A stretch of 64,000 nucleotides of DNA from Amphiscolops sp. MND2022 (Eukaryota), in the NCBI GenBank assembly GCA_964187785.1, contig OZ076418.1:744001-808000 (forward strand), read 5' to 3'. The position numbers and the translations under genes are program-made. Positions 25,526 through 47,350 of this stretch are shown in pieces (position 1 is the stretch's first letter; every line of letters begins with the position of its first letter). The notes beneath the pieces were generated by a model that saw only the letters and a program-made list of their open reading frames with translations, had not been told where the DNA came from and did not search any database.

Positions 25526-25541
25526 AGCCTTTAAAAAGGCT
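25526..25541 (-). terminator. Histone-type 3' stem-loop of the older-family RING gene (left flank of the Polinton insertion)
   Basis: Minus strand reads AGCCTT-TTTA-AAGGCT-ACCCT. Identical copies at 46071, 46702, 47129, 48898 and 52360. Confidence 0.6.
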
Positions 25542-25544
25542 AGG

Positions 25545-25813
25545 AGTAGTAGTATATGTTCCAATGTGGCAGGTATAAAGTGAGGAGTTCATTTACCTTT
25601 TTTCGTGTTCCGCTTCAATATCCTTTAGAAATTTATCTCCTCAAATTAAATAACCTGTCAATTTTATCAGTCAGCTAGGGGTTCATTCACCCGAGAACTG
25701 TCTTATTTGAGTCAAATAACCTGTGAAGGTCATCCGACTGTATGAACTAATTATCTCCTCAAACAAAAGAACCTGTCAATCTTATCAGACTACCCGTCGG
25801 CGAAAGTAATTAT
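25545..25813 (+). repeat. Left terminal inverted repeat
   Basis: Reverse complement of 45385-45655 with a few substitutions and indels. Confidence 0.95.
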
Positions 25814-25990
25814 CTTTTCAGATAGAAGAATCTGTCAATTTATTGAGAATACCCGTCAGCAAAAGTAATTATCTACTCAGATAAAAGAACCTGTCAATCT
25901 TATAACTGCCCTGCGGCGAAAGTAATCATCTTTTCAAATGAAAGAAAGTTTTATGTGAATACCCGTCGGCGAAAGTAATCATCCACGCAA
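25790..25990 (+). repeat. Subterminal ~50-59-bp tandem repeats with core TACCCGTCGGCGAAAGTAATYAT
   Basis: Four core copies are visible. Confidence 0.75.
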
Positions 25991-26612
25991 ATTAGAGTGA
26001 CTAGCACATTTTCTTTTTAGACAATGTGTCAGATAATTCAATTATCCTTGAAAAGTAAAGACAATAACTCTGTCAAGTTTCTCAAAAAGCTTCTTATTTT
26101 GAATAATTATCTATAGATGCTAAAGAACATTGACCGTATTTGATTATATTAACATCGTGTCAAGTAGATTTGTTATATACTAAAGTTGTGGGACTGTCAA
26201 TTTTCCCAGACAACCAGTAACCTAATGTAATTACTTATGAGAAAGAGGACAACAAAAGCCCTCAACTTTCGCAGTGATCCTTCATGGAATAATTATCTAG
26301 CGACGTTAAAGAACATTGAGCGTATTCAAAGTAATGCTACGTAATCTAATCTTGTTATCTCTTTGAGTAAACGTATCCTATCAATTTTCCCAGACATCAA
26401 TTCAACTAGAATAATAACCTATGAAAGAAGAGAACAATACTTTTCAGAAAACATTCTCAGGGCTTAAAAGGAGTATGAAAAAAACTTTCTTGCTCGAACA
26501 TGATCTTACAAAATGAAAGCTAAATATTTTCTAGAACATGGTCACACAAAATGAATGAAATGAAAGTTGAAATATTTTCTAGAACATCAACATACAAAAT
26601 GGATTAGAAAAA

Positions 26613-29600
26613 TTAAATATCTAGGGGTTTTGTGTGAATCCCATCTTCTTGCACTTCTCGTTTAGGGTAAAAGTAAGACAGACCTCGTTTTTTCAGTTCG
26701 TACGTACAAATTTCCTTCTGATCGACAACTCTGAATCCTCTGTTCGTCGTGGTGACTTCATCTTGTTTTTGTAGAACATTCCTCATCTTCAACATTGGAT
26801 TGTCATCCTTCAATGTAGACTTGTTGACTCCTTTGCAGCTTATTTTCACAGTCTCTGATCGAGCATCAAAGCAACAGTATGTCTTTGAACACAAGGCTAC
26901 CATTTCAGTACATCGAAACTCTTCTTTGAAAAGACCAGGTGTTCTTTGATCAAATTTGTTGTGGAGACTGCAACAGTTTCTAGGGAAAAAATTGAATCGA
27001 CCATCAGCTTTGAATTCCCTTTCACTACAATCGGCCCACCGACAGTTTTGCCACAAAGTCTTCATCTCAGGTTTGATGATTTCTTCGATATTCGTCTCGG
27101 ATATTGCCATGTACAAACTATCAGTATCCATCTCAATCAGCTCGAACTTGGTATCATCACAAAAGAGTTTGAAAAAGTTAAAGTATAATTGAAGCATAAC
27201 AAGTTTAGCATATTGGAGTATAAAAAAAACCAACAATGATGGGTTCTTTGTGTTCAATTTTCCTCTTTCCCAATTCCAATTCAAAGATTTCGCGAGGTAG
27301 GTGGTGGAAACGTTTGAACATTCGATTATTGACTAACTTATCCACCTCTGATCCCACAACAAACTGAGTGTTTGTATGTTTCGAGCGATCAATGATTTGA
27401 TATCCATAGGAAGAATTCGCGATCAGTTTCATTGTCTCAGCTACAACAGAAGAATCCTTGTTTTCATCACCTCTTCTGCGTGCTGGCACTACCGAAGAAA
27501 CGAACCCTTCGAAGGTTCTCTTCGGTTTGTATTGAAGAAACCAATGAATTTTTTTCACAACCAATCCTTTTTCGAGATAAAAGTTCAAGAGTGGTGTTAT
27601 AATTGGACCCCGCTCTAGTTTAAAACTCGATATCAACATGCGAGTGGGTTTTTTCAATAGGTTATTTATCTGCGCGAAGGATCGCATGTGTGTTCCTATA
27701 TCTTCACGAGAAACATCGCAGTTTTTGAAGATTGGCGGAAAATCAGCAAATTGATCTCGCAACTCCATGGGAACCTCAATAGTGCAGTCCAAAACTCCAA
27801 TGAGTTGTTCCTGTCGAATTCGTTGGAGAAGGCTAGCTTCGGATAATGGGGGAATGAAGGGGTGATTTTTTTTCATGAAATCTTTAGCTCCTTCTTCGTT
27901 TGATTTCACCATTCTCCACCACTGACATTCCCAAATCTCAACAATTTTTAATCCCTTACTTCTGAGGAATCTTCTGCGGAAAGCATCAGATTGTCGACGT
28001 TTCACTCCCTTTTCGATATCTTCTAAAGGTAAACGACGTTTCTCCTGACAGTGGCAAAAATGATAGAAACATCCCATTGCTTCGAACACTGTGGAACAAT
28101 GTGAACAGTAACCATCCACAGAAAATCTTCCAAACTTCTTTTGCTTTCCATTGAATTGGGTTTGTATGGAACATTCAGGATGTTTGAACTGTTGGAATTC
28201 GAGAATCAATTCCTCGAAATGACTCCGTCTCAACCTGTTTGGATGAAATCGATTATCCTCCTTCAATTCCCACTTCGAGTACGGGCCAGTGGGTAGTTCT
28301 TTTGTCATAGCAAACGGATACAATTGACTAGCGTCAATTCCAACAATAGCTTTGCAGACATTGGACGAATTTTTGATTTTTGTATCCCCCACTTTCGCAT
28401 ATCGAGTAAAAATGATAGATGGACCTCCTGTTAACCATTTTCGAATATAATCATCATACTGTCGATCTGATTCGATGAATGGAAAGAATTTGAAATTTGT
28501 CGAGGAATGGAGAATGCGATTTGCTAAATTTGGTAGAGTACAACCAAGCTTCAACATATCGATACCTCTATCATGATAAAATTTCATCATCGTCAACATA
28601 GCTTCAAGGGTAGGTTTCACATCTTTAACATTGTACCATTCCAAGAAATCACGAAACGTCAGCATGCCTTCTTCAATCCAGATTGTTTCCAACGCTTCAT
28701 AGTTCTCTTCTTTAGTCTTTGGTATTTCCTTCAAACCAAGCTTTCTCAAAGCATCAGGAACAGCAACACCTTGATTCAATATTTGAATGTAATGTTGATA
28801 GTCAGAATCAAGAACATTACAATTCTTCAATTTACTGAAAAACGCTTCAGCTGGGGGCAGACACGGTTGTTCCAATTTAACTACATCATCGAACCATTCA
28901 TAGGGGAAAAATCCTTTCTCTTCCGATGCACCATAAGCTTTCAAAAATTTGTCGAGGGATGTTGCTCCTCCGAGAAAGTTTAAAATATCTAGAAACTGAA
29001 TTCCCATGAAACTACAGCTAATATACTTGTTGCTAACTTTAATTACCGATGGAGAACATTCGTGTTCTAGTAGGAGATACTCCAACAGATACTGTTTGAT
29101 TAGATTCAGATCATACTTCGAACTGTTAAATCCGAATACAGGTAGATAGTCACAGTACTTTTCCAACTCCAATAAAACTCGAGTGAGTGTTTCTTTTTCC
29201 TGAAATAAACCCATGAGAACGGGATCATTCTGAATGTCTTTATCATCAATCTCTTCGTTGTTGTCTTCGTGAGCTTCATCTAGGAGATTATCATTTGTAG
29301 GTTGTCGTTTTTTTCTTCTGGGAAGTTCTTCTATCAGTTGGTTAATGCGTTTTGCAATCTCATCGAGTTCGTTTTTGAACAATTCTCTGTATTGCGTTGC
29401 ACTCTTTTCCGATAACTTTCTAAGTTCATCGACAAACCGACTGACGAGTTCCCTGGGATCACTGCAGCAGATAAAAATAGGTTGATCGCAAAGATTAGAT
29501 GAAATAGCTACGCTTATTGGAACAATGCGAGCGATCCATGTTGTGTTCTCTTGATTGGAAGTGTTGTTTCCTAGTGGAACAGCGAGAGCTTCAAAGTCAA

Positions 29601-30954
29601 ACACAGCTAAATTTTGGAACAATCGTCTCTCCGTTTCAACATGAATGTTTATTCCCTCCAGTTTCTCGAAAATTGTTTCTCTAAGTTCGTACGGTCCATT
29701 GGGATAAGTATGTTTAACTTTGTCATCACAACTCAGCAAATGACGATCCAATAGAGAGCTCTTCGTGAAATAATTGTCACAGTTGTGACATCTAAAGTTT
29801 TTCAAGAGAGTGTTGATGTTACTGACCCAACACACGTGGTTGTTGTACTGAACTAAAGATAACCCTTTCCCGAAAAGTCCTGCACTTCTTCGTGAGAGTT
29901 CCCCTAGTAGTAAGCCTTCTTCATCGTAATACAAAGAATACATATTCAAATTAACTGATGTAATTTTTTCTACTAGAGGAATTTCCTCTGGCGAAACACC
30001 AGGGAAATCAATTGCATCTTGTCCACTTTCGCTCAAGAACGATGTGAAGTAGAGAAGGGTATTGTTCGACAAGTTCTCACTCCCATGAAGATGGAATGCT
30101 ATCGCCCGAAAAAGACACAAATTGTCGTGATACGGCTTACTATTACTGTCGGAGAGAAAGCATTTAACACTCTTATTCCGAATCAAAGCATTGGGTAACT
30201 CTACATCAGTACAACCAAGTGCAACTCGAGGCATCAGATAGACAAAGAAAGTCACATTAGTCACACAGTAAAATCGCCATTTTGTGTCCGGACGCTGTTG
30301 AATAATACTCTCGAAGACGTTTTCATCTTCATAACGTTCCTTGATAAATTCTAAGTCTTCTAATGTAGAAAATATGACTGGGAAATGAAATACGGGATTA
30401 TTATTCTCAGCGTAAAAGTATCGGAACTCCCCGTGGTTCTGAATGTTTTGCAAGACAAACCCAAACGAAAAGTTGAGTTTTGCTGCACAAGGAAGTTCAG
30501 AATGGATGAAATCCAATTTCTCATCAATAAACTTTTCATCTAGCGAATTCAGTCTGAAATTATAAACAATTTTCCTACTGGTTTGGATTTTTGAGTCTGT
30601 AAGAAAATGTTGTACAGTACGCATCTCACTCAAGAGATTTGGATCGGAGTTGAATTCACTCAGATCCATTTCATTGTTGACGTTGGAGGTTGAAGGATAA
30701 TTTTGGTGTTGGGAACGATTGTGGAAAGATAGTTGATGAAAGGTCTGGAAAGGTTGGTGACACACTCTGCAAACGAATGATTTCGCACGATTTGCACCAT
30801 GTTTTGTAGCAATATGATATTGTAATCTCACCAATTTTCCAAATGTCTTGGGACATTTTGGACATCGATGTTGATGAGATTTAATATGACGAGCAAAATT
30901 CTTTTTCGCAAGAAGTTTATTGCAAACGTCACACTGCTTGCGATCGTGTGGCAT
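26613..30954 (-). CDS. polB: Protein-primed family B DNA polymerase (about 1446 aa after correcting one frameshift in the A8 run at 27222-27229)
   Basis: Exonuclease motifs VFDFE, GFNSSKYD and YNVKDV; polymerase motifs GIDASQLYP, KLIANSSYG and EMDTDS. Also N-terminal C2H2 fingers and an OTU-like DNLCLFRA...NHVCWV segment. Confidence 0.95.
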
Positions 30955-31036
30955 CTTGTAAATTAATTATGCGATAAGATGGTCTGCAAATGGTCAAGGG
31001 TAACCTTTTGTCCAGACGATAGTGAATCCACTAATT

Positions 31037-31468
31037 TCACAAACTCGGAACCAATGGGGGAAAAACTATTTGCTCAACTTTGGATATTAGGTCTGCGTTG
31101 AATCGTGGTCCAGAGATACTTCTTGAAGAAATAGCTTTCGCAAAGTGAAACTTGAATCTTTTACGGAATAGTCTTTTTCTTGCCAAACTGGGTTGCTTCA
31201 ATGATGGATAAGGTAGACTTTGATGAAAGTGAATAGCAGCCAACAATTTCTGAAAAATAGAACCTTTCAGATCAACAATTTCGGTAAAATAAACTTTGAA
31301 CGCAGTGAATAGACAATCAATCTGCTGTGATCTGAAATTCGTTGACGTAAAACTTTTGGTTACTTTGGAATGTACGAGAGAATCAAAGAAAATTATGTGA
31401 GTGGAACAGTTAACTTGTTTGCAAATTTTTGTATGTGATCCGACGACGTACTGTTCGAAATTATTCAA
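31037..31468 (-). CDS. Polinton accessory protein, unknown function
   Basis: 143-aa ORF directly upstream of and co-oriented with polB; homologous relics at 24500-24962 and about 50110-50620. Confidence 0.6.
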   Translation of the reverse strand: MNNFEQYVVGSHTKICKQVNCSTHIIFFDSLVHSKVTKSFTSTNFRSQQIDCLFTAFKVYFTEIVDLKGSIFQKLLAAIHFHQSLPYPSLKQPSLARKRLFRKRFKFHFAKAISSRSISGPRFNADLISKVEQIVFPPLVPSL

Positions 31469-31689
31469 ATCGATTTGTGAAGGTTAGGATTCAAAAATGA
31501 CCAACAAACAACAGTCTGTGAAAGATTGGAAAAAAGGTGGAAATAAATCGGGCGTTCCACAAGCCATGAAAAATGTTACTCTCAAAAAGTGAAAAGATAT
31601 CTTACAAAAATGGAAAAGTAAGGAAAGTACTACGAAAGGTTTTCATCTACAAAATGAAATGATAAAAATGACATCACGAGCAAAAAGAA

Positions 31690-31915
31690 AAATTTTCAAT
31701 TGGTCATTTCCTTTTAATTTTGAAAGTAAGCAACTCAAATACAAAATTCTGATTGGTTCGCGAGAAAGTGTTGAATCGGTCGATCGATTTAATGATTTAG
31801 AGTGTCAGCCAATGAAGTTTATTCTCTGAAATCACTAGAAGATATTCCTCTCTAAATACGTGATAGAGAGTAGAAATTCCAAATCGTGACCAATCACAGA
31901 TTTCTGTTATTGGAT
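31690..31915. promoter_or_regulatory. CCAAT-rich candidate bidirectional promoter with palindrome CCAATCACAGA-TT-TCTGTTATTGG (31890-31913)
   Basis: Several CCAAT/ATTGG boxes lie between the divergent transcription units; the palindrome is conserved in the older family. Confidence 0.55.
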
Positions 31916-32005
31916 ACTTGATCGTCTTGATTGATTTCAGCCGACAGCCATTCCATTGTATATCTCCTCCAGACTAGACACCTAAAATTTCACTCTACTA
32001 TTAAG

Positions 32006-32632
32006 ATGAAAGTATTCACCTTTGAAACAATACCTGACAAAGAAAAAATCACTTTTCATTGGGACGAAGCTAATGGAGAGATTGTATTTGTTACAGAGAG
32101 TCGAATTTTTCAGGACGATTGGAGTGTATCGAACAAAATTTGCATTCCTGATGTTCTCTTCTCAATGTCCCACATTTGGATGCACTGTGTGAAGCAAGAA
32201 AGTGATGTAGCCTTATCATCGATAGTTTTACATCGCAAAAATATTCCTCGCCATCAATTTTTGGAGCCTACCCCAAACTTACTTTTACAACCTGTAACGA
32301 ATTGTGAATCAATATCTCCAAGTGTGAGAGAGATTTTCTACGAGCATGACTTATCACGTTGTCCGCTGTCAGCTAATCAATTGGGACTTTTAGAAGACAT
32401 GGAAAGGTTGGAAGGTGCCTGGTCATTGAACGATCAGAGTTCATTCACTCAGTCAACATCCAACGATGTCGCGACTCGCAAAAGGATAATACCCCGAATG
32501 GGTACTTCGGCCATTAGAGGAAAGAGTCACCGACTAGACACGAAACAAGAGAACGTTGATTCGTCGAACCTTTTGATTGGTCCTATCGACAACGAGCACA
32601 CGAGAGTAGGTGTCAGCGAATCAGATAATTGA
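32006..32632 (+). CDS. Polinton accessory protein, unknown function (208 aa)
   Basis: Open frame from ATG 32006; divergent homolog at 23085-23831. Confidence 0.65.
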   Translation: MKVFTFETIPDKEKITFHWDEANGEIVFVTESRIFQDDWSVSNKICIPDVLFSMSHIWMHCVKQESDVALSSIVLHRKNIPRHQFLEPTPNLLLQPVTNCESISPSVREIFYEHDLSRCPLSANQLGLLEDMERLEGAWSLNDQSSFTQSTSNDVATRKRIIPRMGTSAIRGKSHRLDTKQENVDSSNLLIGPIDNEHTRVGVSESDN

Positions 32633-32820
32633 AAAATTTTACTCGTTTATTCAACGTTACGAGTATATTCGATTCATCATTTAACTCAACATTATTTCAC
32701 TTTTTTACTAAAAGCCAAGAAGTCTGTACGTCCTTTTTCATTTCCTCCAGTATAGATAAAATTGATACTCTTTTTTACTAACATCTTTAACGTTGTTTTA
32801 ACGTGGAACATTCAATCAAG

Positions 32821-33559
32821 ATGAAGAGAAGTCTTTCCTCAATTTCATCAAAAGGATCCAACGCTGAGCCTAACGTGGAAAGTGGGACTTTGGGACTTCG
32901 AGCATTGAACAGCTACAAAGAACGAAATGCTGTTGGAGTTTTGGAGCAAGAAAACTGTTGGGATTTTTCGCACGTACCTTTCAGAACTCTGAGAGTATCA
33001 ATTCCCAAATACTCATATGAGAGGGAAACAGTTTCGGATTGGGTTCATTTCAAAATTCTCAAAAAGGATCGAGGAGAGTACAAAGGACATCAACTCGTTA
33101 TTCTTTCTCTTTATGAAACTCGTCAATTATTGTCAAGTTTGGAACGAATCAATAAAGATTCTCACTCACAATTTGAGTGTATCAAAGGTGATACAAACTA
33201 CGGAACAGACATTTCAGACTTCCCACAAAGTCATTCTCCGTCCAATTTCCCTACTTTGGAGGAAGATCGAGAAAAAGGAATTAAATTTTGGGATATTTGC
33301 GAGTCCGAGACGATTTGTGGGAGCATCCCTCAAAGTGTATGACAATACCGACTATTCAAAGACATATATTCAATTGAAACTCTACACTAGAAATGATACT
33401 CATGACCAATTCGTTCGGAAAGGGGCACTCAGTCTGCGGGTTGGTGAACTCGAGGAACTAACCCGACACGATAGTCAACTGATGGAAGCAGTTGTGAGAG
33501 AATCACTGAGAAAGTACAAATTGTGGAAGGAAAACTCTGCATTTTCATTAAAAGTTTGA
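32821..33559 (+). CDS. Polinton protein with candidate PC4-like ssDNA-binding domains, probably one frameshift near 33272-33290
   Basis: Two overlapping frames; the second contains RRFVGASLKVY...YIQLKLY...VRKGALSL...ELEEL, reminiscent of PC4/Sub1. Confidence 0.45.
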
Positions 33560-33692
33560 ATGATGTTCTTTTTATCTTAGTTATGTATGTGCATGTTTTC
33601 CGAAGTATTTATTTCCATCGTTCTCGTGAATTGAAAAATAATAGAGTTTTCATTACAATTCATGTTTCATTAGAAGTGAGTCGGATAGAATA

Positions 33693-34094
33693 ATGATTGA
33701 TATAGGAGAGAATAGAAAACTTATTACCAGGAAAAAAGTTGAAAGAACAATTGAATTCATTGAGTGCAAAACTTTTGGATCCAAGTGTCAGCCTGAATTT
33801 CATTTACAATTTAGTCTACTGGAAGCGAGTCTCTTACCTAAAGAAATTGAAGTTGTCACAAAAGAATCCAAGTCTTTCAAATATTCGAACGGAAGAAGGA
33901 GACTCGAATTGACATTCTGGGGTACAGATAACAAAATTGCAAACTGTAAAATTGAAGTTAAACAGTTTAAAAAGACAAAATTCGTTACAATCAATAGCTT
34001 AGCGCTCTCTACTCAAGAATATTTGCGACTAAAACAATTTTGTACGTCAACAATATCGGTACCTGAAATTGACATTTTGGAGCAGTCTCAGTGA
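33693..34094 (+). CDS. Polinton accessory protein, possibly PC4-like
   Basis: 133-aa ORF; KIEVKQF...SLALSTQEYLRL resembles the PC4 strand-strand-helix end. Confidence 0.5.
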   Translation: MIDIGENRKLITRKKVERTIEFIECKTFGSKCQPEFHLQFSLLEASLLPKEIEVVTKESKSFKYSNGRRRLELTFWGTDNKIANCKIEVKQFKKTKFVTINSLALSTQEYLRLKQFCTSTISVPEIDILEQSQ

Positions 34095-34131
34095 ACATTT
34101 TGGAACAGTCTCATTGAACATTTACCCAACA

Positions 34132-34542
34132 ATGAATTTGAACTCGATTCTGTCAACTGAAAAAGAAATATCCACCAATACTCATTTTCAGAAAAACACT
34201 AAACGCAAAAATTTTTTCTTGGCGTGTTGTCTCTCCATCAGTTCAGAAGTAGATTTATTAGAAATTGATCGACTAGCTCCGTTCGGTGGTTTGATAGGAA
34301 TTGGTGACTCAACTCTCGAGACAGTATTCGGTGGATTGAAGTGTTTTCGAATGCATGCAGTTTTACATGATGCATCTGGTTTCATGAAAACGACATATTC
34401 AAGAGGAGTCGGATATTGTTATGTATTCAAAAGCGATACCATACTACCAAATTCCTGTTTATTGGGACACATTACTGGTTTAGTTTATTGTCTCTATTTG
34501 AAATTCTATCATTCCAAGCTTTTCAGTGATTTCGATGTTTGA
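34132..34542 (+). CDS. Candidate phospholipase A2-like protein
   Basis: Gly-rich loop PFGGLIGIG followed by HAVLHDA (His-Asp dyad) and GVGYCY. Confidence 0.45.
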   Translation: MNLNSILSTEKEISTNTHFQKNTKRKNFFLACCLSISSEVDLLEIDRLAPFGGLIGIGDSTLETVFGGLKCFRMHAVLHDASGFMKTTYSRGVGYCYVFKSDTILPNSCLLGHITGLVYCLYLKFYHSKLFSDFDV

Positions 34543-34623
34543 TTAGCTTCACAGTTTCAAAACCGTGATCGTCCCCTCATTATCCAATTTCAACCACAAA
34601 ATCTAGTTTGCTCAATCACGGAA

Positions 34624-34893
34624 ATGACTGATGGTGTTGATGGTTTGGAAACAATTACACCCCAACAGATTGTATTTGACTCAAACAATCAAGAACGATC
34701 ACCTTGGTTCTTTTTGGGACGCGAATGTTCGAGATCTGCTAGCCTCTTTTTCTTTCAGTGTTTTTTAATTTTCATTTTAGTTTCAACGTCAATCACTTGC
34801 ATTGCATTATCAAAAAGTTGTGAAGAGTCAACTGTTTGGGTTGCAATTTTAACGTGGGCTGTTGGCTATATCTTACCTTCTCCGAGGCCTTAA
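34624..34893 (+). CDS. Small two-helix membrane protein typical of Polintons
   Basis: Hydrophobic segments LFFFQCFLIFILVSTSITCIAL and VWVAILTWAVGYILPSP. Confidence 0.7.
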   Translation: MTDGVDGLETITPQQIVFDSNNQERSPWFFLGRECSRSASLFFFQCFLIFILVSTSITCIALSKSCEESTVWVAILTWAVGYILPSPRP

Positions 34894-34894
34894 C

Positions 34895-35545
34895 ATGAAC
34901 AAAATTAATTCCACGAAAGACAGGCTTTTCATGTCTATAGTAGGCCCTTCTGGGTGTGGAAAGTCCCATTTGATTTTCGACATGTTGAGAAGAACTTTTT
35001 TCCCCGAGTTTGACAAAGTTTTGTATTTTTTCAAACACAGTCAACCTCTATTTGAGCAAATGAGTCGCGAGTTTCCAAAGTTAGAATTCATCGGATCGCT
35101 AGATTTCGATCTAATTGACAATCTACCAGATAATGGAGCCAATTATCTTTTAGTGTTCGATGATTCCTGTCAAGAAATTTACAAATCGCAAAAGTTCATC
35201 GACTTGGCTACTGCAGGAAGACACAAAAAGCTGAGTTGTATTTATATCAAACACAATCTCTTTCACAAATCATCTAACGGTCGGGATATAGACTTGCAAA
35301 ATACACATATTGTTCTTTTCAAATCACCGCGTGACGTACAACAAGTAAAAGTTCTCAGTCGTCAATTAGGAATTGAACGTCAACTAGTAGATTGGTACAT
35401 TGATGCTACTACAAAACCTTTCGGACACTTGATGATTGACCTTAGTCCAAAAACTGATGATCTCATACGTTATGGTACTAATTGTACATCATTTCCTTCA
35501 CAGTTTTACCTACCTAGCAGTAGAGCACGACAGTGGGTTAAATGA
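34895..35545 (+). CDS. FtsK/A32-like genome-packaging ATPase
   Basis: Walker A GPSGCGKS, Walker B LLVFDD and the GRH motif. Confidence 0.93.
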   Translation: MNKINSTKDRLFMSIVGPSGCGKSHLIFDMLRRTFFPEFDKVLYFFKHSQPLFEQMSREFPKLEFIGSLDFDLIDNLPDNGANYLLVFDDSCQEIYKSQKFIDLATAGRHKKLSCIYIKHNLFHKSSNGRDIDLQNTHIVLFKSPRDVQQVKVLSRQLGIERQLVDWYIDATTKPFGHLMIDLSPKTDDLIRYGTNCTSFPSQFYLPSSRARQWVK

Positions 35546-35859
35546 TCAAACCACTGAATTACTTTACTCTGAAACTCTTTTTGACTTTCAACAAAACCCT
35601 CCAAAACATTTTCCTCAAAAAATGTTCCAAAGACTTTCTTCGTTTTCTATGTGAGTGTGTTAAAAATCTACTAGAAGGGAATCTCTGTGATATTCGGCGA
35701 AAGCAAATCAAACGGTTTGAATCTTTAATCATTCGGATAATTTCCCCAAAGACTTCTGTGAGAACAAGACGTGCTTTGCTAGCCAGTGATAAGGGACTCT
35801 CGCTAATCAGATTGATTGGTGGTTGCGTTTTGAAAAAGTTTGCACATAGATTTGATTGA
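35542..35859 (+). CDS. Conserved small basic Polinton protein downstream of the ATPase
   Basis: LRFLCECVKNLLEGN...RRALL pattern; duplicated at 39902-40219. Confidence 0.7.
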   Translation: MIKPLNYFTLKLFLTFNKTLQNIFLKKCSKDFLRFLCECVKNLLEGNLCDIRRKQIKRFESLIIRIISPKTSVRTRRALLASDKGLSLIRLIGGCVLKKFAHRFD

Positions 35860-36376
35860 TGGACAAAAGTAAGTTTGTCTTGATTCCCTTATCTTTGTGG
35901 GAAAATCTATTCAAAAGTTACTTCGAACCCACAACTACAAAAGAAAAATCAGCAGGACAAGTTTATCTCAAATTCGGAGGGTCATTAACCCCGAAGACTG
36001 ATCGTAAGTCGATGGTTTTTGAACCTAAATATAAAGTTAGTAAAGTTGCTCCCCAATCACCTCTGAAATCGTCGCTACCTAATTTCGAAGAAACCTTGGA
36101 GAATAAATACAAGAACAATTCTTCGGCAAAAAAATTCTCAAAAAGCTGACAACGAACGATTCCATCAAGTTTTCAATCAACAAAACTATAATAGTTGACG
36201 ACATTGACACTGAAATTGAAGTGGAGGACTTTATCTCGAACTTGACAAGGAAGAAAGGTGAATTCGATCCACGCTTCACAATAATTTTGAATGTTCTAGA
36301 TCTTGATCCATCTACTGTTCAGAATTCTAAAGCTTTCAATGACGACAATGCAGGATGGGTCTATTACGCTTTCTGA
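35856..36376 (+). pseudogene. Polinton ORF (about 173 aa) with a frameshift in the A7 run at 36128-36134
   Basis: Adding one A continues the frame as KKILKKLTTNDSIKF...AGWVYYAF*; duplicated at 40216-40736 with the same lesion. Confidence 0.65.
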
Positions 36377-37306
36377 AAGATTACTATTGAATAAGTTGTA
36401 CAGAAAAGTTCTTCAGCGTTTGGGTCAATCAAAAGTTTATATAAAAGCAGTGGTCTCACTCGGAAGAAAGTAGAAACATTTCTCGAATCAAAAAGTGCCT
36501 ATACAAAGTTTAAACAGAGACGAGGAAAATTTAATCGACTTTCTGCTCGAGCTAGATTTATCAATGACATTTGGTGCTTGGATTTAGCGCAAATGGATAG
36601 ACTAGCATCTTACAATTCAGGAGTCAAGTATTTAATGGTTGCCGTTGACATCTTTTCACGATTCGTTCGTGTACAACCTCTAAGAACGAAGAGTGCGAAA
36701 AGTACTGAAAATGCATTTGTCAAGATGTGTGGACGTTCCTCAAATGGATTGGATTTCCCCAAAAAACTTTGGATTGATCGAGGTAAAGAATTCCTCGGTG
36801 ACTTTAAAACTTTTTGTGAAGATGTTGGCATTGTCGTTTATCATACAAACAGTGAAACCAAAGCAGCCTACGCGGAAAGAGTTATTCGATCCTTGAAAAA
36901 TGTTATCTATCGTTATCTAGAGGAGAAGAATACTTTCAATTACTTGAAAGAGCTTCCCGCATTCGTTGAAACACTAAATTCACGCGTGTCCTCGGCCACC
37001 AACTTAGCACCTAAGCATGTGATGAACGAACATTTTCTTCAGGTTTTGTATGGTGCCAGAAATTCGTACAACCCTCTCAAAATTGGACAAAGTGAAGCAA
37101 AGTTTTCCGTCTGAGACAGAGTCCGAATCGCAAAAGTTGATAAAGCCTTTCGACGAGGATATAAATCCCAATTCACAGATGAATTGTTCACTATTACTAA
37201 AATTGCTACTCGCTACCCTATTGTTACCTACATAATCAAAAATCAGACTGGAGAAACAATTTTGGGAAAGTTTTACCAATCAGAATTGTCTCGTCAAATC
37301 ACTTGA
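36348..37306 (+). pseudogene. Retrovirus-like DDE integrase (about 319 aa), disrupted by a frameshift near 36408 and an in-frame TGA at 37112-37114
   Basis: DLAQM / WIDRGKEF / AERVIRSLK catalytic motifs. The C-terminal KF.V(G)DRVRI...GY...FT.E.F...GKFY..EL continues past the TGA. Confidence 0.92.
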
Positions 37307-37309
37307 CAG

Positions 37310-38152
37310 ATGGATAACTTTATTGTCGAGTTGGTTTCGAACGCTTCTTCTTCTATTTACCCTGACAATACACTTGCTTCGTTCACCAATTTTCTTCCCG
37401 AACAATTGTACTTAGATGGTGATTGGGAGGTAGCTCTTCTTGAAATCACTTACCCTGCTCTTTATAACAACATTACTGAGGGTAAATTTTGGTACGTACC
37501 ACAGAGAAGTACTTCCAAAAAAAGCAACAACGAAGAAACGAGGGAAGCATCTAATGAATCTTACGAATCTGTGACTATTCTGCCTGGAATGTATTTATCA
37601 TTAGATGAGATTTTTCAGTCGATGAATGATGCACTCAGGTTGCGCAACAGACAAAGTGTCGAACTAAAATGGAAGGTTGATTCAATTACTAGACACTGTG
37701 AAATTGAGTTAGCATCTGACAAGTCACAACTAGTTTTCGCTAGTCAGGACTTATGTTCGATACTGGGTTTTAGTCAGTCAGTATGGTTTAGTAGCAAAGG
37801 TCCTCACAGGAGTGAGTTTCCAATAGATATTCTGCGTTTCCACTCTGTCATGGTATACACTGATATCGTTGAATTTTCAATCATTGGTGATACCAAAGCT
37901 CCAATTCTGAGATGCTTTCCGTTCAATAATAAAATTCAAAGAGATTCTATATCCGTCACAAAGTATTCCAATTATGTTTCGTTCGACAATTTACAATTCA
38001 GAAGACTTTTGAAAAATTCAATACATTCAATCAAAGTTGAACTGAGAAGTCCGACAGGAGAATTAATCCCTTTCGTTGCAGTCGGCATAACACGACTCAC
38101 TTTACTTTTCAGAAAAACGAAAGCTAGTCCCAAAGACTCGATTCCAATCTGA
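37310..38152 (+). CDS. Minor capsid protein (penton-like, single jelly-roll)
   Basis: N-terminal motif LVSNAS..YPDNTLASFTNFLP...L.GDWEVAL.EI.YP. Confidence 0.88.
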   Translation: MDNFIVELVSNASSSIYPDNTLASFTNFLPEQLYLDGDWEVALLEITYPALYNNITEGKFWYVPQRSTSKKSNNEETREASNESYESVTILPGMYLSLDEIFQSMNDALRLRNRQSVELKWKVDSITRHCEIELASDKSQLVFASQDLCSILGFSQSVWFSSKGPHRSEFPIDILRFHSVMVYTDIVEFSIIGDTKAPILRCFPFNNKIQRDSISVTKYSNYVSFDNLQFRRLLKNSIHSIKVELRSPTGELIPFVAVGITRLTLLFRKTKASPKDSIPI

Positions 38153-38154
38153 TC

Positions 38155-38523
38155 ATGAGAAATGTTCATTTACCTCACTTTAGTGGCGTTCCACGTCAAC
38201 GAGGGAGAGGACTCGGAGCACTTGCTGGTACGATTGCTCGTACCGCTTTTCCTATCTTGAAACGCTTTGTTGTACCAGCTTCAAAAAAAATTGGAAGAGA
38301 TGCTATCGATATAGCCTTACCGCAAGTTGAGGATGTCTTCAGCGGAAAATCATCCGTCAAAAAAGCAATCAGGAAAACAGCTTCTTCAACATTAAAAAAA
38401 CAAATTGGAGGAGGTCATCGGAAAAAAATTAGGAGGTCGAAAGGGAAAGCAAAAAGGTTCATTTCTAAACGAAAGAAGAGAAAACGCAGTCGCGAAGATT
38501 TCTTTAAAAAAATTAAAGAGTAA
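38155..38523 (+). CDS. Basic core/cement-like virion protein with QxGxG motifs
   Basis: RQRGRGLG, KQIGGG and an Arg/Lys-rich tail; located between the minor and major capsid genes. Confidence 0.7.
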   Translation: MRNVHLPHFSGVPRQRGRGLGALAGTIARTAFPILKRFVVPASKKIGRDAIDIALPQVEDVFSGKSSVKKAIRKTASSTLKKQIGGGHRKKIRRSKGKAKRFISKRKKRKRSREDFFKKIKE

Positions 38524-39681
38524 TGTCTGTACCCACTCCTGTGAATCACTCCTCATTAGATGTTTTTGATGGAGTTCCAATTTTGGAACCTATTCTTTGG
38601 TCCAACACTCAACAGACTTTCCCTACTAATTCACTGAATGAAGCTAGTATTGATTTCCATCTAGAGACAGATCGTAATGTAATGTTGGACTTACAGGAAA
38701 CTTATTTACTATTGAAAGTTGAAGTGAAAAAGGATGGCGTAGCCTTAGAAAACGCAGATGAAGTCATGTTCAGTAACAATGCGTTACATTCGCTTTTCTC
38801 CAACTGTGAAGTTTACTTCAACAATGAACAAATTTATACTTCTAATGGATTGTATCCTCACAAAGCACAAATTTCAAATGAATTTTCTGGAACTCGAGGT
38901 CTGAAAGATTCTATTGGAATATGTCAAGGGTACCAGTATGAAAATATCCCAAACGACTTTACTTCCGCTCCTTTCACGGGGAAAGTAATGACAGTGAACA
39001 CTGGAGAAAAAAATGTTTTATGGAAAGCTAGCGATCGATGTGTTCACTTGCGACAAATTTCTTCTACCCAACATCAAAGTTAGAATTCGACTCATTCGTT
39101 CACGACCGAATTTTTATCTCATTAGTACCCAAACAAAGAATTTCCATGCTACAATCAAGGAAGCTTCTCTTTTTACTAGAGTAGTTGCAGTGGATGAACC
39201 TTGTATCCGTACTATCCAGGCAACAATCAAGGAGAGACCAGCTCGTTACAACTTTACAGAGGTTCTTAGTAAAACATTCATTATTCCAAACAACCAGAAC
39301 CAGTTTATTCACGAGAACATTTTCAATGCACCAATTAGGCGAATAGCTATCGCAATGAATACAAACACTGCTTTCACTGGAACTTTGGGAACAAACCCTT
39401 TTCACTATAGAAAATTTGATCTTAGAGAAGTGCGAATCGTGAGGGGAAATCAAGTTATTGTCAGGATGGATACAAGAAATATTGTTCAGACTTATGTTAC
39501 CACGATGAAAGCTCTAAAATTTGAGGATGATGGTCCAAACATACCTTTGTCAGAGTATGAGAATCATTTCGTCCAAGTGTTTGATCTGACCTCCACACAA
39601 GAGGCTAATGTCCAAATGTATTATCCTGATGTAGTCGCTGCCAGTCTCAGACTAGAACTTTTCTTCCAGACAGCACTGACT
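38523..39681 (+). pseudogene. Major capsid protein (double jelly-roll), 5' copy: frameshift at A7 (39007-39013) and C-terminus lost at the duplication junction
   Basis: LHSLFSNCEVYFN...YPHKA, GKLAIDVF..DK.L.PN, NPF.Y..F motifs. Confidence 0.9.
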
Positions 39682-40780
39682 AATCACCGCGTGACGTACA
39701 ACAACTAAAAGTTCTCAGTCGTCAATTAGGAATTGAACGTCAACTAGTAGATTGGTACATTGATGCTACTACAAAACCTTTCGGACACTTGATGATTGAC
39801 CTTAGTCCAAAAACTGATGATCTCATACGTTATGGTACTAATTGTACATCATTTCCTTCACAGTTTTACCTACCTAGCAGTAGAGCACGACAGTGGGTTA
39901 AATGATCAAACCACTGAATTACTTTACTCTGAAACTCTTTTTGACTTTCAACAAAACCCTCCAAAACATTTTCCTCAAAAAATGTTCCAAAGACTTTCTT
40001 CGTTTTCTATGTGAGTGTGTTAAAAATCTACTAGAAGGGAATCTCTGTGATATTCGGCGAAAGCAAATCAAACGGTTTGAATCTTTAATCATTCGGATAA
40101 TTTCCCCAAAGACTTCTGTGAGAACAAGACGTGCTTTGCTAGCCAGTGATAAGGGACTCTCGCTAATCAGATTGATTGGTGGTTGCGTTTTGAAAAAGTT
40201 TGCACATAGATTTGATTGATGGACAAAAGTAAGTTTGTCTTGATTCCCTTATCTTTGTGGGAAAATCTATTCAAAAGTTACTTCGAACCCACAACTACAA
40301 AAGAAAAATCAGCAGGACAAGTTTATCTCAAATTCGGAGGGTCATTAACCCCGAAGACTGATCGTAAGTCGATGGTTTTTGAACCTAAATATAAAGTTAG
40401 TAAAGTTGCTCCCCAATCACCTCTGAAATCGTCGCTACCTAATTTCGAAGAAACCTTGGAGAATAAATACAAGAACAATTCTTCGGCAAAAAAATTCTCA
40501 AAAAGCTGACAACGAACGATTCCATCAAGTTTTCAATCAACAAAACTATAATAGTTGACGACATTGACACTGAAATTGAAGTGGAGGACTTTATCTCGAA
40601 CTTGACAAGGAAGAAAGGTGAATTCGATCCACGCTTCACAATAATTTTGAATGTTCTAGATCTTGATCCATCTACTGTTCAGAATTCTAAAGCTTTCAAT
40701 GACGACAATGCAGGATGGGTCTATTACGCTTTCTGAAAGATTACTATTGAATAAGTTGTACAGAAAAGTTCTTCAGCGTT
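39682..40780 (+). repeat. Internal duplication of 35322-36420
   Basis: Constant offset 4360; at least one SNP (ACAAGTAAA versus ACAACTAAA). Confidence 0.95.
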
Positions 40781-40785
40781 AGAAC

Positions 40786-41437
40786 TTATCTCATTAGTAC
40801 CCAAACAAAGAATTTCCATGCTACAATCAAGGAAGCTTCTCTTTTTACTAGAGTAGTTGCAGTGGATGAACCTTGTATCCGTACTATCCAGGCAACAATC
40901 AAGGAGAGACCAGCTCGTTACAACTTTACAGAGGTTCTTAGTAAAACATTCATTATTCCAAACAACCAGAACCAGTTTATTCACGAGAACATTTTCAATG
41001 CACCAATTAGGCGAATAGCTATCGCAATGAATACAAACACTGCTTTCACTGGAACTTTGGGAACAAACCCTTTTCACTATAGAAAATTTGATCTTAGAGA
41101 AGTGCGAATCGTGAGGGGAAATCAAGTTATTGTCAGGATGGATACAAGAAATATTGTTCAGACTTATGTTACCACGATGAAAGCTCTAAAATTTGAGGAT
41201 GATGGTCCAAACATACCTTTGTCAGAGTATGAGAATCATTTCGTCCAAGTGTTTGATCTGACCTCCACACAAGAGGCTAATGTCCAAATGTATTATCCTG
41301 ATGTAGTCGCTGCCAGTCTCAGACTAGAACTTTTCTTCCAGACAGCACTGACTGAAACAATTGAAGTGATTGTCCTCGGTGAACGATTGTCAACAATTTA
41401 TTTAGACAAAAGTGGAACAGTTGTTAAGAATGGATAA
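40786..41437 (+). pseudogene. Major capsid protein, 3' copy (40786-41353 duplicates 39114-39681; carries the only C-terminus)
   Basis: Offset 1672; ends ...LGERLSTIYLDKSGTVVKNG*. Confidence 0.9.
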
Positions 41438-41834
41438 TGAACAACTATTATCTATTGTCTCGAAAATTAAAAACTTGAAGTATAAATATTTGGGATCTTT
41501 TCCCGCAGATATGGTTCCATTTAATATTGACAAAAATAGTTTCTGTATAATTAACAGCGACTCGAGTACTGAACCCGGAACCCATTGGGTGATGATTGCG
41601 GATCGAGACGGAATACTCTACTTTGGTGATTCCTTGGGAAGACCGTTGGACTACTACAGAAAGATACGATTCAATTCGAACCGATCAGTGAAACTCTTGT
41701 GTAATTTTCGGTTGCAAAGACAAGACTTATGTGGACTATACTGTATTTATTTTGCCCATGTACTCTACAAATATGGAAATTTATCGTACGTTTGTGATAG
41801 TTTAATATTACGTTTCTTTGCTGAGTTTTTATAA
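41430..41834 (+). CDS. Adenain-like cysteine protease (134 aa)
   Basis: PGTHW (His), YFGDSLG (Asp) and Q..DLCGLYC (Cys); ATG overlaps the MCP stop. Confidence 0.92.
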   Translation: MDNEQLLSIVSKIKNLKYKYLGSFPADMVPFNIDKNSFCIINSDSSTEPGTHWVMIADRDGILYFGDSLGRPLDYYRKIRFNSNRSVKLLCNFRLQRQDLCGLYCIYFAHVLYKYGNLSYVCDSLILRFFAEFL

Positions 41835-41899
41835 TAAAATTTCACTTAATTTTCTTTCAAGTGACATTTGAGTATTGCGAGTTTTTTGCAAAATAATTC

Positions 41900-43915
41900 C
41901 AAAGATTTCAAAAATTTTCTTCACTATTTCTCGAGTCATGATATTGTTTTTAAATATTTTTTCATGAGGATTCTGAAAAAGTATGGTTTCATAAACTTTT
42001 GAAAAAATCATTATTTTCCTATTTTTTTTTCTACTAAAATCACTAAGAAAATTTCTCTAAACGTATTTTCGTATCTTAGAATTGATTTCTGAGATGTATT
42101 TTTCATGCGGATTCTGAAAATGTATAGTTTTATAGACTCTTGAAAAAACCATTTTTCAATTTTTTTTCATATTTTTTCTCGAATATTTTCAAGAAATTTT
42201 TGTAGAAACGTTTTTTCGAGTTGTATATATGTTTTCTAAGACGTACTTGTTATAAGGATTCTGAAAATGTATGGTTTAATGGACTTTTGAAAAATTTTTT
42301 TTGCTTTTTTCATATTTTTCCTCGAAATTTTTCAAGAAATTTTTGTCGAAACGTTTTTTCGAGTTGTATATATGTTTTCTAAGACGTACTTGTTATAAGG
42401 ATTCTGAAAATGTATGGTTTAATGGACTTTTGAAAAATTTTTTTTTTGATTTTTTTCACATTTTTTCTCGGAATTTTTCAAGAAATTTTTGTCGAAACGT
42501 TTTTTCGAGTTGTATATATGTTTTCTAAGACGTACTTGTTATAAGGATTCTGAAAATGTATGGTTTAATGGACTTTTGAAAAAATTTTTTTTTGTTTTTT
42601 TTTCACATTTTTTCTCGACATTTTTCAAGAAATTTTTGTCGAAACGTTTTTTTGAGTTGTATATATATGTTTTCTAAGACGTACTTATTATAAGGATTCT
42701 GAAAATGTACAGTTTAATGGACTTTTGAAAAAATTTTTTTGATTTTTTCATATTTTTTCTCGAAATTTTTCAAGAAATTTTTGTCGAAACGTTTTTTCGA
42801 GTTGTATATATGTTTTCTAAGACGTACTTGTTATAAGGATTCTGAAAATGTATGGTTTAATGGACTTTTGAAAATTTTTTTTTGATTTTTTTTCACATTT
42901 TTTCTCGAAATTTTTCAAGAAATTTTTGTCGAAACGTTTTTTCGAGTTGTATATATGTTTTCTAAGACGTACTTGTTATAAGGATTCTGAAAATGTATGG
43001 TTTAATCGACTTTTGAAAAAAACTTTTTTTCGATTTTTTTTTCACATTTTTTCTCGAAATTTTTCAAGAAATTTTTGTCGAAACGTTTTTTCGAGTTGTA
43101 AATATGTTTTCTAAGACATACTTGTTATAAGGATTCTGAAAATGTATGGTTTAATGGACTTTTGAAAAAAATTTTTTTTTGTTTTTTTTTCACATTTTTT
43201 CTCGACATTTTTCAAGAAATTTTTGTCGAAATGTTTTTTTGAGTTGTATATATATGTTTTCTAAGACGTACTTATTATAAGGATTCTGAAAATGTATAGT
43301 TTAATGGACTTTTGAAATTTTTTTTCACAATTTTTCTCGAAATTTTTCAAGAAATTTTTGTCGAAACGTTTTTTCGAGTTGTAAATATGTTTTCTAAGAC
43401 GTACTTGTTATAAGGATTCTGAAAATGTATGATTTTATAGACTTTTGAAAAAATCATTTTTTCTTATTCTTTTTCTACTAAAATCACTAAAAATTTTTCT
43501 CTAAACATTTTTTCAACATTTACAATTGATTTCTGAGATGTATTTTTCAGGAGGATTCTGAAAATGTATGATTTTATAGACTTTTGAAAAAATCATTTTT
43601 TCTTAGTCTTTTTCTACTAAAATCACTAAACATTTTTCTCTAAACATTTTTTCAACATTTACAATTGATTTCTGAGATGTATTTTTCAGGAGGATTCTGA
43701 AAATGTATGATTTTATAGACTTTTGAAGAAATCATTTTTTCTTATTCTTTTTCTACTAAAATCACTAAAAATTTTTCTCTAAACATTTTTTCAACATTTA
43801 CAATTGATTTCTGAAATGTTTTTTTTTCATGAGGATTCTGAAAATGTATGGTTTAATGGACTTTTGAAAAAATCATTTTTTCTTATTCTTTTTCTACTAA
43901 AATCACTAAAAATTA
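41900..43915 (+). repeat. AT-rich tandem array, about 14 units of ~133-150 bp, inside the Polinton
   Basis: GGATTCTGAAAA recurs at about 41968, 42109, 42256, 42399, 42545, 42694, 42837, 42982, 43131, 43281, 43414, 43553, 43692 and 43833. Confidence 0.95.
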
Positions 43916-43994
43916 ATAAATTCGAAATAGTAAACCAATGCAATTGACAAAATTGAAAGCAATAACATTTCAACTTCAATCTCTCGCACAGGGT

Positions 43995-44010
43995 AGCCCT
44001 TAAAAGGGCT
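43995..44010 (-). terminator. Histone-type 3' stem-loop after the RING-like gene
   Basis: Minus strand AACCC-AGCCCT-TTTA-AGGGCT-ACCCT, 23 nt after the stop codon. Confidence 0.65.
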
Positions 44011-44033
44011 GGGTTGAAAAGAAAGTTGACTTA

Positions 44034-44300
44034 CTAGTCGCTCGATGACATGATGACATCGTCCTCTGACTCCTGTTGGATGTTCAGAGAGGTAGAGCGA
44101 CAGTGTGGACATTTGTCTATGTACTGAGAGCAGACAGCTCTACAGAAGACAAAGTCACACACTCCGCAACTAACCCACGAGCACCAACATTTCCTCCGAA
44201 GTGTAAGACAGATGGCACACCTCTCCTTAGTGCCTCTGTGTTCATGGATTCCGAACTCCGCTCCGACTTTTTCACGACTAGTTAACTTTCTCTTAGGCAT
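44034..44300 (-). CDS. Cys-rich RING/FYVE-like zinc-finger protein (88 aa)
   Basis: C-x2-C-x6-C-x-C-x4-C-x2-C-x4-C-x3-C-x6-C-x2-C ending CPHCR; N-terminal PKRK; homologs in the flanking array. Confidence 0.75.
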   Translation of the reverse strand: MPKRKLTSREKVGAEFGIHEHRGTKERCAICLTLRRKCWCSWVSCGVCDFVFCRAVCSQYIDKCPHCRSTSLNIQQESEDDVIMSSSD

Positions 44301-44683
44301 GATTGCAGAATAAAATGATATTGTTCAGACTAAAGAGAGAATCTATAACTCTCCTTTGATTGGTTACAATGAACTGAGTGACTCTACATTGGTTAAGTAC
44401 ATTCTTGTGATTTCTGACCAATAATATCACAGCGCAAAAAACTGATATATAATTAACATTAAACAAAGATCAAAAGAAACCAGATCAGACCCTTAAGATT
44501 AAAGAGAATGAAAATCTCTTTAACCTCAAAGAAAATCTCAGGTGAACCTTACGAGGTCTGGGATTCGAAGAAAAAGAAATAACTAACCTGTAGTTGGCGT
44601 TCCACAAAGTTCAAAGGAAACCGGATCAGAACCTTAAGTTTAAAGAGAAAGTCAATCTTTAAACTCAAAGAAAAATCACTGGT

Positions 44684-44699
44684 AGCCCTTAAAAGGGCT
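44684..44699 (-). terminator. Histone-type 3' stem-loop after the PIP-box ORF
   Basis: Minus strand AACCC-AGCCCT-TTTA-AGGGCT-ACCAG, 22 nt after the stop codon. Confidence 0.65.
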
Positions 44700-44721
44700 G
44701 GGTTTGAAAAGACTAAACAAG

Positions 44722-44931
44722 TTACTTGTAAAAGTCTGTAATTTTACTTTGCTTCGGAAGCTTCCCAACGAAGTTCTTCAGCGTGACGACACTATGCTCA
44801 GCCGGGACGATCAACCAGATCGCCCGGTCTCCATTCTCTCCGTTCACTTCTTCGGCTTGCCTCACCGTAAGGTGGGGTAGCCCATTCTCCCTGGCCCGAC
44901 GGAGCAAAATCTCTCGCCTGCTTTCTAACAT
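44722..44931 (-). CDS. Micro-protein (69 aa) with C-terminal PCNA-interacting PIP box QSKITDFY
   Basis: ATG at 44931; matches the Q-x-x-(ILM)-x-x-(FY)-(FY) consensus at the extreme C-terminus; followed by the stem-loop. Confidence 0.6.
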   Translation of the reverse strand: MLESRREILLRRARENGLPHLTVRQAEEVNGENGDRAIWLIVPAEHSVVTLKNFVGKLPKQSKITDFYK

Positions 44932-45174
44932 CCTCACAAAAATTCGGTATTTTAAGTAACTTGTTTGTGACTACAAAAATTGAGGTATGATGGTAAGGTT
45001 TCAAAATTGGAAAAGTTGGTAGAAATTGATCTTGACGGAATATGATTGGATGAAATTGCTAGATCCTATTTTAAAAATCCTGATAAAGATGATTTTTTGC
45101 CTTGACAGCATGTCTGGTTGAGTTAGTAAATTTATTAATGTTGAAAAGGAAACCTTGAAGTGATAATTATTTTT

Positions 45175-45410
45175 TCTGACGGGTAGTCTACTTTACTGAA
45201 CTAGTTAATAGTCCTTGAATAGAAATCCACTAACAGATAATTACTCTTGCTGACGGGTAGTCTACTTTACTGAACTAGTTAATGTTCGTTGAATAGAAAT
45301 CCACTAACACATAATTACTTTCGCCGACGGGTAGTCTACTTTACTGAACTAGTTAATAGTCCTTGAATAGAAATTCACTAACACATAATTACTTTCGCCG
45401 ACGGGTAGTC
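45175..45410 (-). repeat. Subterminal ~74-bp tandem repeats sharing the CTACCCGTC..AAGTAATTAT core
   Basis: Three full units plus the copy inside the TIR. Confidence 0.8.
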
Positions 45411-45655
45411 TGATAAGATTGACAGGTTCTTTTGTTTGAGGAGATAATTAGTTCATATAGTAGTCGGATGACCTTCACAGGTTATTTGACTCAAATAAGA
45501 CAGTTCTCGGGTGAATGAACTCCTAGCTGGCTGATAAAATTGGCAGGTTCTTAATTTGAGGAGATAAATTTCTAAAGGATATTGAAGCGGAACACGAAAA
45601 AAGGTAAATGAACTCCTCACTTTATACCTGCCACATTGGAACATATACTACTACT
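45385..45655 (-). repeat. Right terminal inverted repeat
   Basis: Reverse complement of 25545-25813. Confidence 0.95.
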
Positions 45656-47158: not shown

Positions 47159-47350
47159 TTAAAAATTATTGAAGGGGGTAAAAAGCTGTCCTTCCCTGCA
47201 ATGTGGGCCTGAAATTAACATTGCTCCACACACTTTGGCGCAGCAAACTTTACCAAAAGTGGTGCATTGCAACCAGTCGCACCTGCATGCTGAATTCAGA
47301 GTAGTACATACCCAACAGTAGGTGTGCTTATTCTGTATACAGTCATGACG
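47159..47350 (-). pseudogene. Older-family RING/FYVE-like gene fragment (one of six copies, at about 45672, 46101, 46732, 47159, 48928 and 52390)
   Basis: YCWVCTTLNSAC(W/R)CDWLQCTT(C/F)GKVCCAKVCG..LI.CPH.R aligns with RCAICLTLRRKCWCSWVSCGVCDFVFCRAVCSQYIDKCPHCR. Confidence 0.85.

Follow-up and report, generated by a model that had tools for sequence, protein, structure and literature searches.

The window, by which we mean the whole 64,000-nucleotide stretch of DNA that was analysed, holds a 20.1-kb Polinton/Maverick element, and a short accessory reading frame, PIP69, starts 724 bp inward from the right end of this element. The features on which our argument depends are these.

25545..45655, no strand assigned: Polinton/Maverick element of 20,111 bp, with AGTAGT...ACTACT ends and a GCTAGG target duplication
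26613..30954, minus strand: protein-primed B-family DNA polymerase (pPolB), by Pfam; two ORFs in the window copy
34895..35545, plus strand: A32-type packaging ATPase, by Pfam
36593..37114, plus strand: rve integrase, by Pfam
41430..41834, plus strand: adenovirus-type (C5) cysteine protease, a weak Pfam match (E 0.0035) below the cut-off
43995..44010, minus strand: second, identical histone-type stem-loop, behind the Cys-rich ORF, by sequence pattern
44034..44300, minus strand: 88-aa Cys-rich ORF, a putative zinc finger, from the ORF list and its sequence
44679..44704, minus strand: histone-type 3' stem-loop with its flanks behind PIP69 (stem-loop proper 44684-44699; the stem runs from 22 nt after the stop)
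44722..44931, minus strand: PIP69, a 69-aa accessory ORF with an open frame, 24 genomic matches, purifying selection and frame-keeping indels
44728..44751, minus strand: PIP box codons, residues 61-68 (QSKITDFY), 5 of 8 positions invariant
44791..44931, minus strand: conserved N-terminal module, residues 1-47, with 15 of 47 positions invariant and two helices predicted at low confidence
45380..45655, no strand assigned: right terminal inverted repeat, with its partner at about 25545-25818

An earlier note on this DNA had placed the reading frame in a Polinton, a setting borne out by the terminal sequences, the duplication, the inverted arms and the core-gene matches to Pfam. The element has the terminal inverted repeats with AG...CT ends and the 6-bp target duplication that mark Polintons/Mavericks, the two copies of GCTAGG lying at 25539-25544 and 45656-45661, and its pPolB, A32-type ATPase and rve integrase score over or near the Pfam cut-offs, with the protease below. 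Pfam gave no match for the major and minor capsid genes, and the capsid labels that we attach to ORFs of this element are presumptive, resting on position and on conservation across families. The capsid region (38523-41437) is split and partly duplicated and the polymerase (26613-30954) is in two ORFs; with these regions split, the window copy looks defective, while its arm genes are open. An AT-rich tandem repeat with units of about 140-150 bp (41957-43966) separates the protease from the arm genes, and a similar AT-rich tract stands behind the Cys-rich gene of a sister Polinton family. The insertion site (25526-25545) adjoins the hairpin of a remnant of that family's Cys-rich gene, and the flanks of the element (including 45656-54700) are tandem debris of the sister family's arm and polymerase start.

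PIP69 has 24 genomic matches, all within Polinton arm DNA. In 18 of them the frame is open from the ATG to the PIP box, and a hairpin follows 13-34 nt on; the other six are truncated or out of frame ahead of the motif. Seven copies are near-identical and dispersed, the remaining ones extending down to 54% identity. Selection was tested on 7 of the 18 intact copies, one or two per lineage, over 64 codons. NG86 omega lay between 0.14 and 0.70 in 20 of the 21 pairs (one pair was saturated), and a codon model with free omega improved on omega=1 by a 2dlnL of about 34-36. When the window copy was compared in turn with four others, in comparisons that are not independent of one another, indels were multiples of three in 8 of 8 cases within the ORF, as against 1 of 21 in the flanks. 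Every intact copy belongs to a single genome, and a single degenerate array accounts for 14 of the 24 matches. As judged from its sequence, PIP69 is a genuine Polinton accessory gene, under selection and lineage-restricted, and it is very probably translated.

The array just mentioned (G000:C11:23.64-23.68 Mb, L088-L091) is a tandem series of arm-only units belonging to several diverged lineages, each unit comprising a terminal repeat, a PIP gene, a hairpin, a Cys-rich gene and a further hairpin; besides its share of the PIP69 matches it has zero core-gene matches. When the window PIP69 is compared with its counterparts at L009 and L010, DNA identity is lower in the ORF than in the downstream flank, the figures for L010 being 160 of 210 identical positions in the ORF and 196 of 203 in the flank. 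The sequences suggest that old PIP69 alleles may have been swapped as a cassette between Polinton arms.

Within family 1, the gene is present in 9 of 12 elements; two others carry a deletion, and one is without the arm in the DNA examined. One family-1 element (L060/L061, G000:C5:44.81-44.83 Mb) has an identical deletion of the two accessory genes in both arms, with one hairpin kept. The sister family (ATPase identity 64%) has the Cys-rich gene without PIP69: there was no PIP69 match in the two elements examined, and no PIP-ending ORF in the one arm with ORFs listed. Four elements of other Polinton groups, one from each, contained neither PIP69 nor the hairpin; an antisense 34-aa loose match in an other-group element was set aside. 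Because the gene is missing from 3 of the 12 family-1 elements, from the sister family and from the four other-group elements, PIP69 is not needed for Polinton spread here.

Relatives elsewhere are few. A Pfam search with PIP69 found no match, the Atlas gave no usable lead, and a single-sequence search returned no homologues; nor were relatives found in viral contigs, JGI metagenomes, phages or the PDB. A PIP69 profile retrieved four credible proteins from the 50% library and three from the 90% library, all unnamed. Three proteins, P0001, P0002 and P0004, resemble degenerate PIP69 copies of this genome; P0005, a repeat-rich plant protein, was rejected as a chance match. The only relatives from outside the assembly are P0003/P0010, which are 56 aa long and 55-59% identical to PIP69, and which were not found in this assembly. 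These proteins retain the N-terminal module, as seen in P0003, and stop before the PIP box; known from protein alone, they may represent either a nonsense copy or a true PIP-less form.

The C-terminus of PIP69 reads KLPKQSKITDFYK, also given as LPKQSKITDFYK, in each case followed by the stop, and its last residues are QSKITDFYK. The ORF thus ends, as had been claimed for it, in a canonical PIP box carrying the TD dipeptide, and QSKITDFY matches Q-x-x-[ILMV]-T-D-aromatic-aromatic. The canonical form Q-x-x-[ILMV]-x-x-[FY]-[FY] is present in 17 of the 18 intact copies, the exception having I at the last position. Across the seven copies compared, Q61, K63, I64, T65 and F67 are invariant, T65 being encoded by three different codons; position 62 may be S, L or T (six codons in all), D and E alternate at position 66, and at position 68 Y and F occur along with a single I. 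Invariant positions number 5 of 8 in the PIP box and 15 of 47 in the N-terminal part, as against 0 of 13 in the intervening linker. The box is therefore conserved above its surroundings in the genomic copies. The earlier note had named conservation in homologues as one of its checks, and the answer is divided: the box is kept in diverged genomic copies under purifying selection, but it is lacking in P0003/P0010.

The comparison with p21 and Cdt1 needs more qualification. The PIP degron has been defined as Q-x-x-hydrophobic-T-D-aromatic-aromatic-x-x-x-R/K, with high affinity contributed by T5 (PMC3973308). The T of the proposed p21/Cdt1-type signature is invariant in PIP69, but the D is not: TD is found in the window copy and in 15 of the 18 intact copies overall, and TE in the other 3. 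The basic residue at +4 is indeed missing, as the note had said. Only one residue follows QSKITDFY, so the window protein has no +4 position; 16 of the 18 intact copies end at +1, and the remaining 2 have V, rather than K or R, at +4. Host Cdt1 itself has QPTINSVF, with R at +4 and no TD (N-terminus of the Cdt1 frame, L176), which makes the degron rule uncertain in this host. PIP boxes are usually found at the C-terminus (PMC6204406), so that an ending straight after the motif is ordinary. Given the Cdt1 sequence, the variable D6 and this ordinary ending, the reading of the tail as a truncated, degradation-resistant degron is weak. Host PCNA is an ordinary single-exon gene, and we think it probable that PIP69 docks on its product through the C-terminal PIP box. 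Elsewhere in the genome, QRKITDFF occurs in two related non-Polinton frames (L162:1501-1524 and L165:1501-1524), which we take to resemble pogo/Tigger-type transposase tails.

Just beyond the PIP69 stop lies the sequence ACCC-AGCCCT-TTTA-AGGGCT-ACCA, of which ACCC starts 18 nt past the stop. The host genes for H2A, H2B, H3 and H4 all end in ACCC-GGCCTT-TTTA-AAGGCC-ACCA; the Polinton hairpin and these four core histone genes have in common the 5' ACCC and 3' ACC flanks, the loop and the stem length. The PIP69 hairpin combines the hallmarks of a histone stem-loop, namely a 6-bp stem, a 4-nt loop, a G-C pair at position 2, U at loop position 3 and conserved flanks, and its sequence was matched 0 times in 100 shuffles. 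When nine examples were aligned, 54 of 54 cells were paired and 3 of the 6 pairs showed two-sided changes, the nine being related by descent so that the shuffle control for them gives no probability. Pair 2 (G-C) and loop U3, the diagnostic positions of the histone stem-loop (bioRxiv 10.64898/2026.10.14.759114), are fixed in all nine.

A genome search with a pattern based on an A-U first pair gave 52 matches, and its reversed control none; most of the 30 examined sit 17-19 nt past a PIP69 or Cys-rich stop. A more general hairpin pattern had 6270 genome matches, and among the matches listed most lie in core histone arrays; the host core histones are arranged in 3.63-kb quartets (L027-L045). The hairpin pattern was absent from viral contigs. 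The histone-type 3' end that the note had proposed is thus real as sequence and matches the host histone stem-loop, and the host has PCNA, an SLBP scoring over its profile cut-off, and a candidate U7 snRNA (L172:1501-1556, minus strand) that has a U7-type Sm site and scores 33.9 bits where the cut-off is 34. There is no AATAAA or ATTAAA within 300 nt of the PIP69 stop, an absence that carries little weight because 5 of 9 other ORFs of the element have no such hexamer behind them either. On balance we favor SLBP/U7-type processing of the PIP69 mRNA.

The neighboring Cys-rich gene, with its identical hairpin, has a sister-family homologue of 81 aa that is 36% identical and is also followed by a hairpin. 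Its identity as a RING protein is not established: the Atlas offered RING-like leads at 0.89 only, and there was no fold match.

How might these signals work together? The linker between the N-terminal module and the PIP box is variable and indel-rich, and from the pattern of conservation we describe PIP69 as a PIP box joined by a free linker to a conserved module; a monomer model was of poor quality, with a pLDDT of 48. With an mRNA ending in a host-type histone stem-loop, PIP69 would be made in S phase and its message confined to replicating cells, at a time when PCNA is loaded on DNA. With its C-terminal PIP box the protein would then attach to host PCNA and act as an adaptor, tying whatever partner its N-terminal module binds to host replication forks. 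Our first guess for that partner would be a protein of the element, such as the integrase, the polymerase or the co-regulated Cys-rich protein. The element may thus have assembled an S-phase module from two host cell-cycle signals, one in RNA (the stem-loop) and one in protein (the PIP box). A conserved accessory gene whose PCNA-docking product is made in S phase and serves as an adaptor to replication forks is the best explanation of the whole that we can offer, and we are evenly divided on whether it is right.

The earlier note had suggested either a competitor or a recruiter of PCNA. If PIP69 does bind PCNA, three arguments incline us slightly toward an adaptor and away from a blocker. A free linker sets the PIP box apart from a conserved N-terminal module; the 47 residues of that module, which the note did not discuss, point to an adaptor over a bare competitor peptide. 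No canonical PIP box was found in the other sense-strand ORFs of the window Polinton, whereas the transposases of other elements carry one of their own. Finally, histone-type mRNAs are degraded when DNA synthesis comes to a halt; a strong blocker would in this way eliminate the message that encodes it, and this decay would limit what a blocker could do.

A stable p21-like blocker is nevertheless plausible and the leading rival, although we consider it rather unlikely. On this account a high-affinity T5 PIP box would occupy PCNA and, having no basic residue at +4, evade CRL4-Cdt2, slowing host forks or translesion synthesis during replication of the element by the protein-primed polymerase that it encodes. 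Protein-primed polymerases need no PCNA, which counts in its favor, as do the invariant T5 and the replacement or loss of the +4 residue in every intact copy. There are precedents too: TD-type PIP peptides that cannot be degraded displace Pol eta/kappa (PMC3973308), and stable p21 blocks PCNA-dependent replication (PMC3974872). However, a blocker does not account for the 15 invariant positions among the N-terminal 47 residues, which persist in a PIP-less relative; D6 is not fixed, and host Cdt1 manages without TD. A histone-type mRNA, moreover, would decay as soon as a blocker had stalled the forks.

Another rival concerns the hairpin. It could instead be a DNA element, or a terminator that serves the arms generally, unrelated to SLBP and S phase, in which case PIP69 would be expressed on some other schedule; we regard this as unlikely. 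Several differences from host histone genes do speak for it. The first pair of the stem is A-U in the Polinton hairpins and G-C in host histone genes, and the distance from stop to stem is 21-23 nt in the Polinton genes, as opposed to 42-70 nt in the host genes. Against the Rfam Histone3 model (RF00032) the Polinton hairpins score 18.5-20.4 bits (PIP69, 19.8) and the host genes 25.7-30.2; the cut-off of 34 bits is missed by Polinton hairpins and host histone genes alike, and at the gathering threshold Rfam has zero matches across the whole window. Pairing with the U7 candidate is not clear-cut. The region downstream of PIP69 reaches -4.8 kcal/mol, a value that 39% of background sequences equal, and the Cys-rich gene -8.4 kcal/mol, equalled by 4.6%; among host genes the values are -8.8 for H2B, -6.2 for H2A and -1.8 for H3, so that the H3 control is at background level as well. 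A TTGA[AG] word at +14 to +18 is common to the Polinton genes and host H2A/H2B, but we do not count it as evidence because H3 and H4 lack it. Set against all this, the ACCC/ACC flanks, the loop and the stem length are those of all four host core histone genes, and the A-U-type hairpin is always on the sense strand, just past a stop, behind two unrelated genes in two families.

A third possibility, which we judge distinctly improbable, is that the main job of PIP69 resides in the N-terminal module (in binding DNA, chromatin or another host protein, for example) and that the C-terminal motif is a lineage-specific addition or serves another ligand, PIP-like motifs being capable of promiscuity. 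P0003/P0010, which retain the N-terminal part alone, and the single PIP69 copy with I at position 68 are consistent with this. Yet the invariant positions of the tail are PIP consensus positions plus K63 and T65, with position 62 left free, and a C-terminus of this kind is rare by chance. In 60 simulated windows (second-order Markov, ORFs of at least 50 aa), Q..[ILM]..[FY][FY] fell within the last 12 residues of only 3 of 5971 ORFs, and the TD form occurred in none of them at any position; in the real window the motif occurs in 3 of 137 ORFs, and PIP69 is the sole case with it at the end. The last alternative, that PIP69 is a chance ORF or a tail captured from a host PCNA client such as POLD3, is very remote and largely refuted, because all 24 matches are in Polinton arm DNA, selection and frame-keeping indels are evident, the host Cdt1 motif differs, and capture from POLD3 was rejected for want of similarity to a protein that ends in a different motif.

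We therefore return to the adaptor, and to its place among known systems. PIP69 shares with the PIP degrons of p21(CIP1), Cdt1 and Set8 the Q-x-x-hydrophobic-T-D-aromatic-aromatic core (PMC3973308). Unlike them, it has no +4 basic residue, its D varies to E, it is encoded by a mobile element, and it has no CDK-inhibitor or licensing domain; searches of Pfam and the PDB found no N-terminal CDK-inhibitor domain, and no sequence homology was found. PIP69 is neither a PIP degron nor a CIP/KIP protein. Clamp motifs have been described in the transposon proteins of Drosophila pogo, human Tigger and Lemi1 and in LINE-1 ORF2p, along with clamp binding by Tn7 (PMC5371812); the Polinton is likewise a mobile element with a sliding-clamp motif, but its motif is on a separate 69-aa protein and not on a transposase, integrase or polymerase. 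The Thermococcales inhibitor of PCNA, TIP, is a looser parallel. Both are small and free-standing, and TIP binds PCNA as PIP69 putatively does, but TIP is an archaeal cellular protein with a non-canonical PIP followed by a helix, whereas that of PIP69 is canonical and terminal (PMC6204406).

The Polinton 3' end resembles that of replication-dependent histone mRNAs (RF00032; SLBP/U7) in its 6-bp stem, 4-nt loop, G-C pair 2, loop U3, host-type flanks and position near the stop; it departs from them in standing behind non-histone genes, in its A-U first pair, in its shorter distance from the stop and in a downstream element that is only putative. Variable ORFs flanking core modules and (AGT)2//(ACT)2 ends are known from the accessory regions of Mavericks/Polintons (PMC8097293), although the main text of that paper mentions neither PCNA nor histones, and the PIP69 family has no named relative. 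Processing proteins have been sought in giant viruses and none found (bioRxiv 10.64898/2026.10.14.759114); the main text of that preprint does not mention Polintons or transposons, and a second preprint (bioRxiv 10.64898/2026.08.17.745202) did not bear on the question. In the titles and abstract openings listed from non-subscription literature, we found no PIP micro-protein in a Polinton and no histone stem-loop on the non-histone genes of a mobile element.

Overall, the interpretation offered by the earlier note is partly supported, and a broader model can be put forward tentatively, at slightly short of an even chance: that two sister Polinton families hijack the histone-mRNA pathway, using an SLBP stem-loop and no poly(A), to make non-histone accessory proteins in replicating cells only, and that one of them adds a free-standing PCNA-docking micro-protein. 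The more surprising part, and most likely the one to surprise a specialist, is the histone 3' end on non-histone genes; to our knowledge, in animals this 3' end is held to be confined to replication-dependent histone mRNAs. We also know of almost nothing established about how Polintons are expressed and engage the host cell, or of roles assigned to their accessory genes. If the model is true, a Polinton gene could be assigned a definite host target in PCNA, and the histone stem-loop would be its timing device. Such transcripts would be under-seen by poly(A) RNA-seq, and natural non-histone users would test the requirements of SLBP/U7 processing outside the histone loci.
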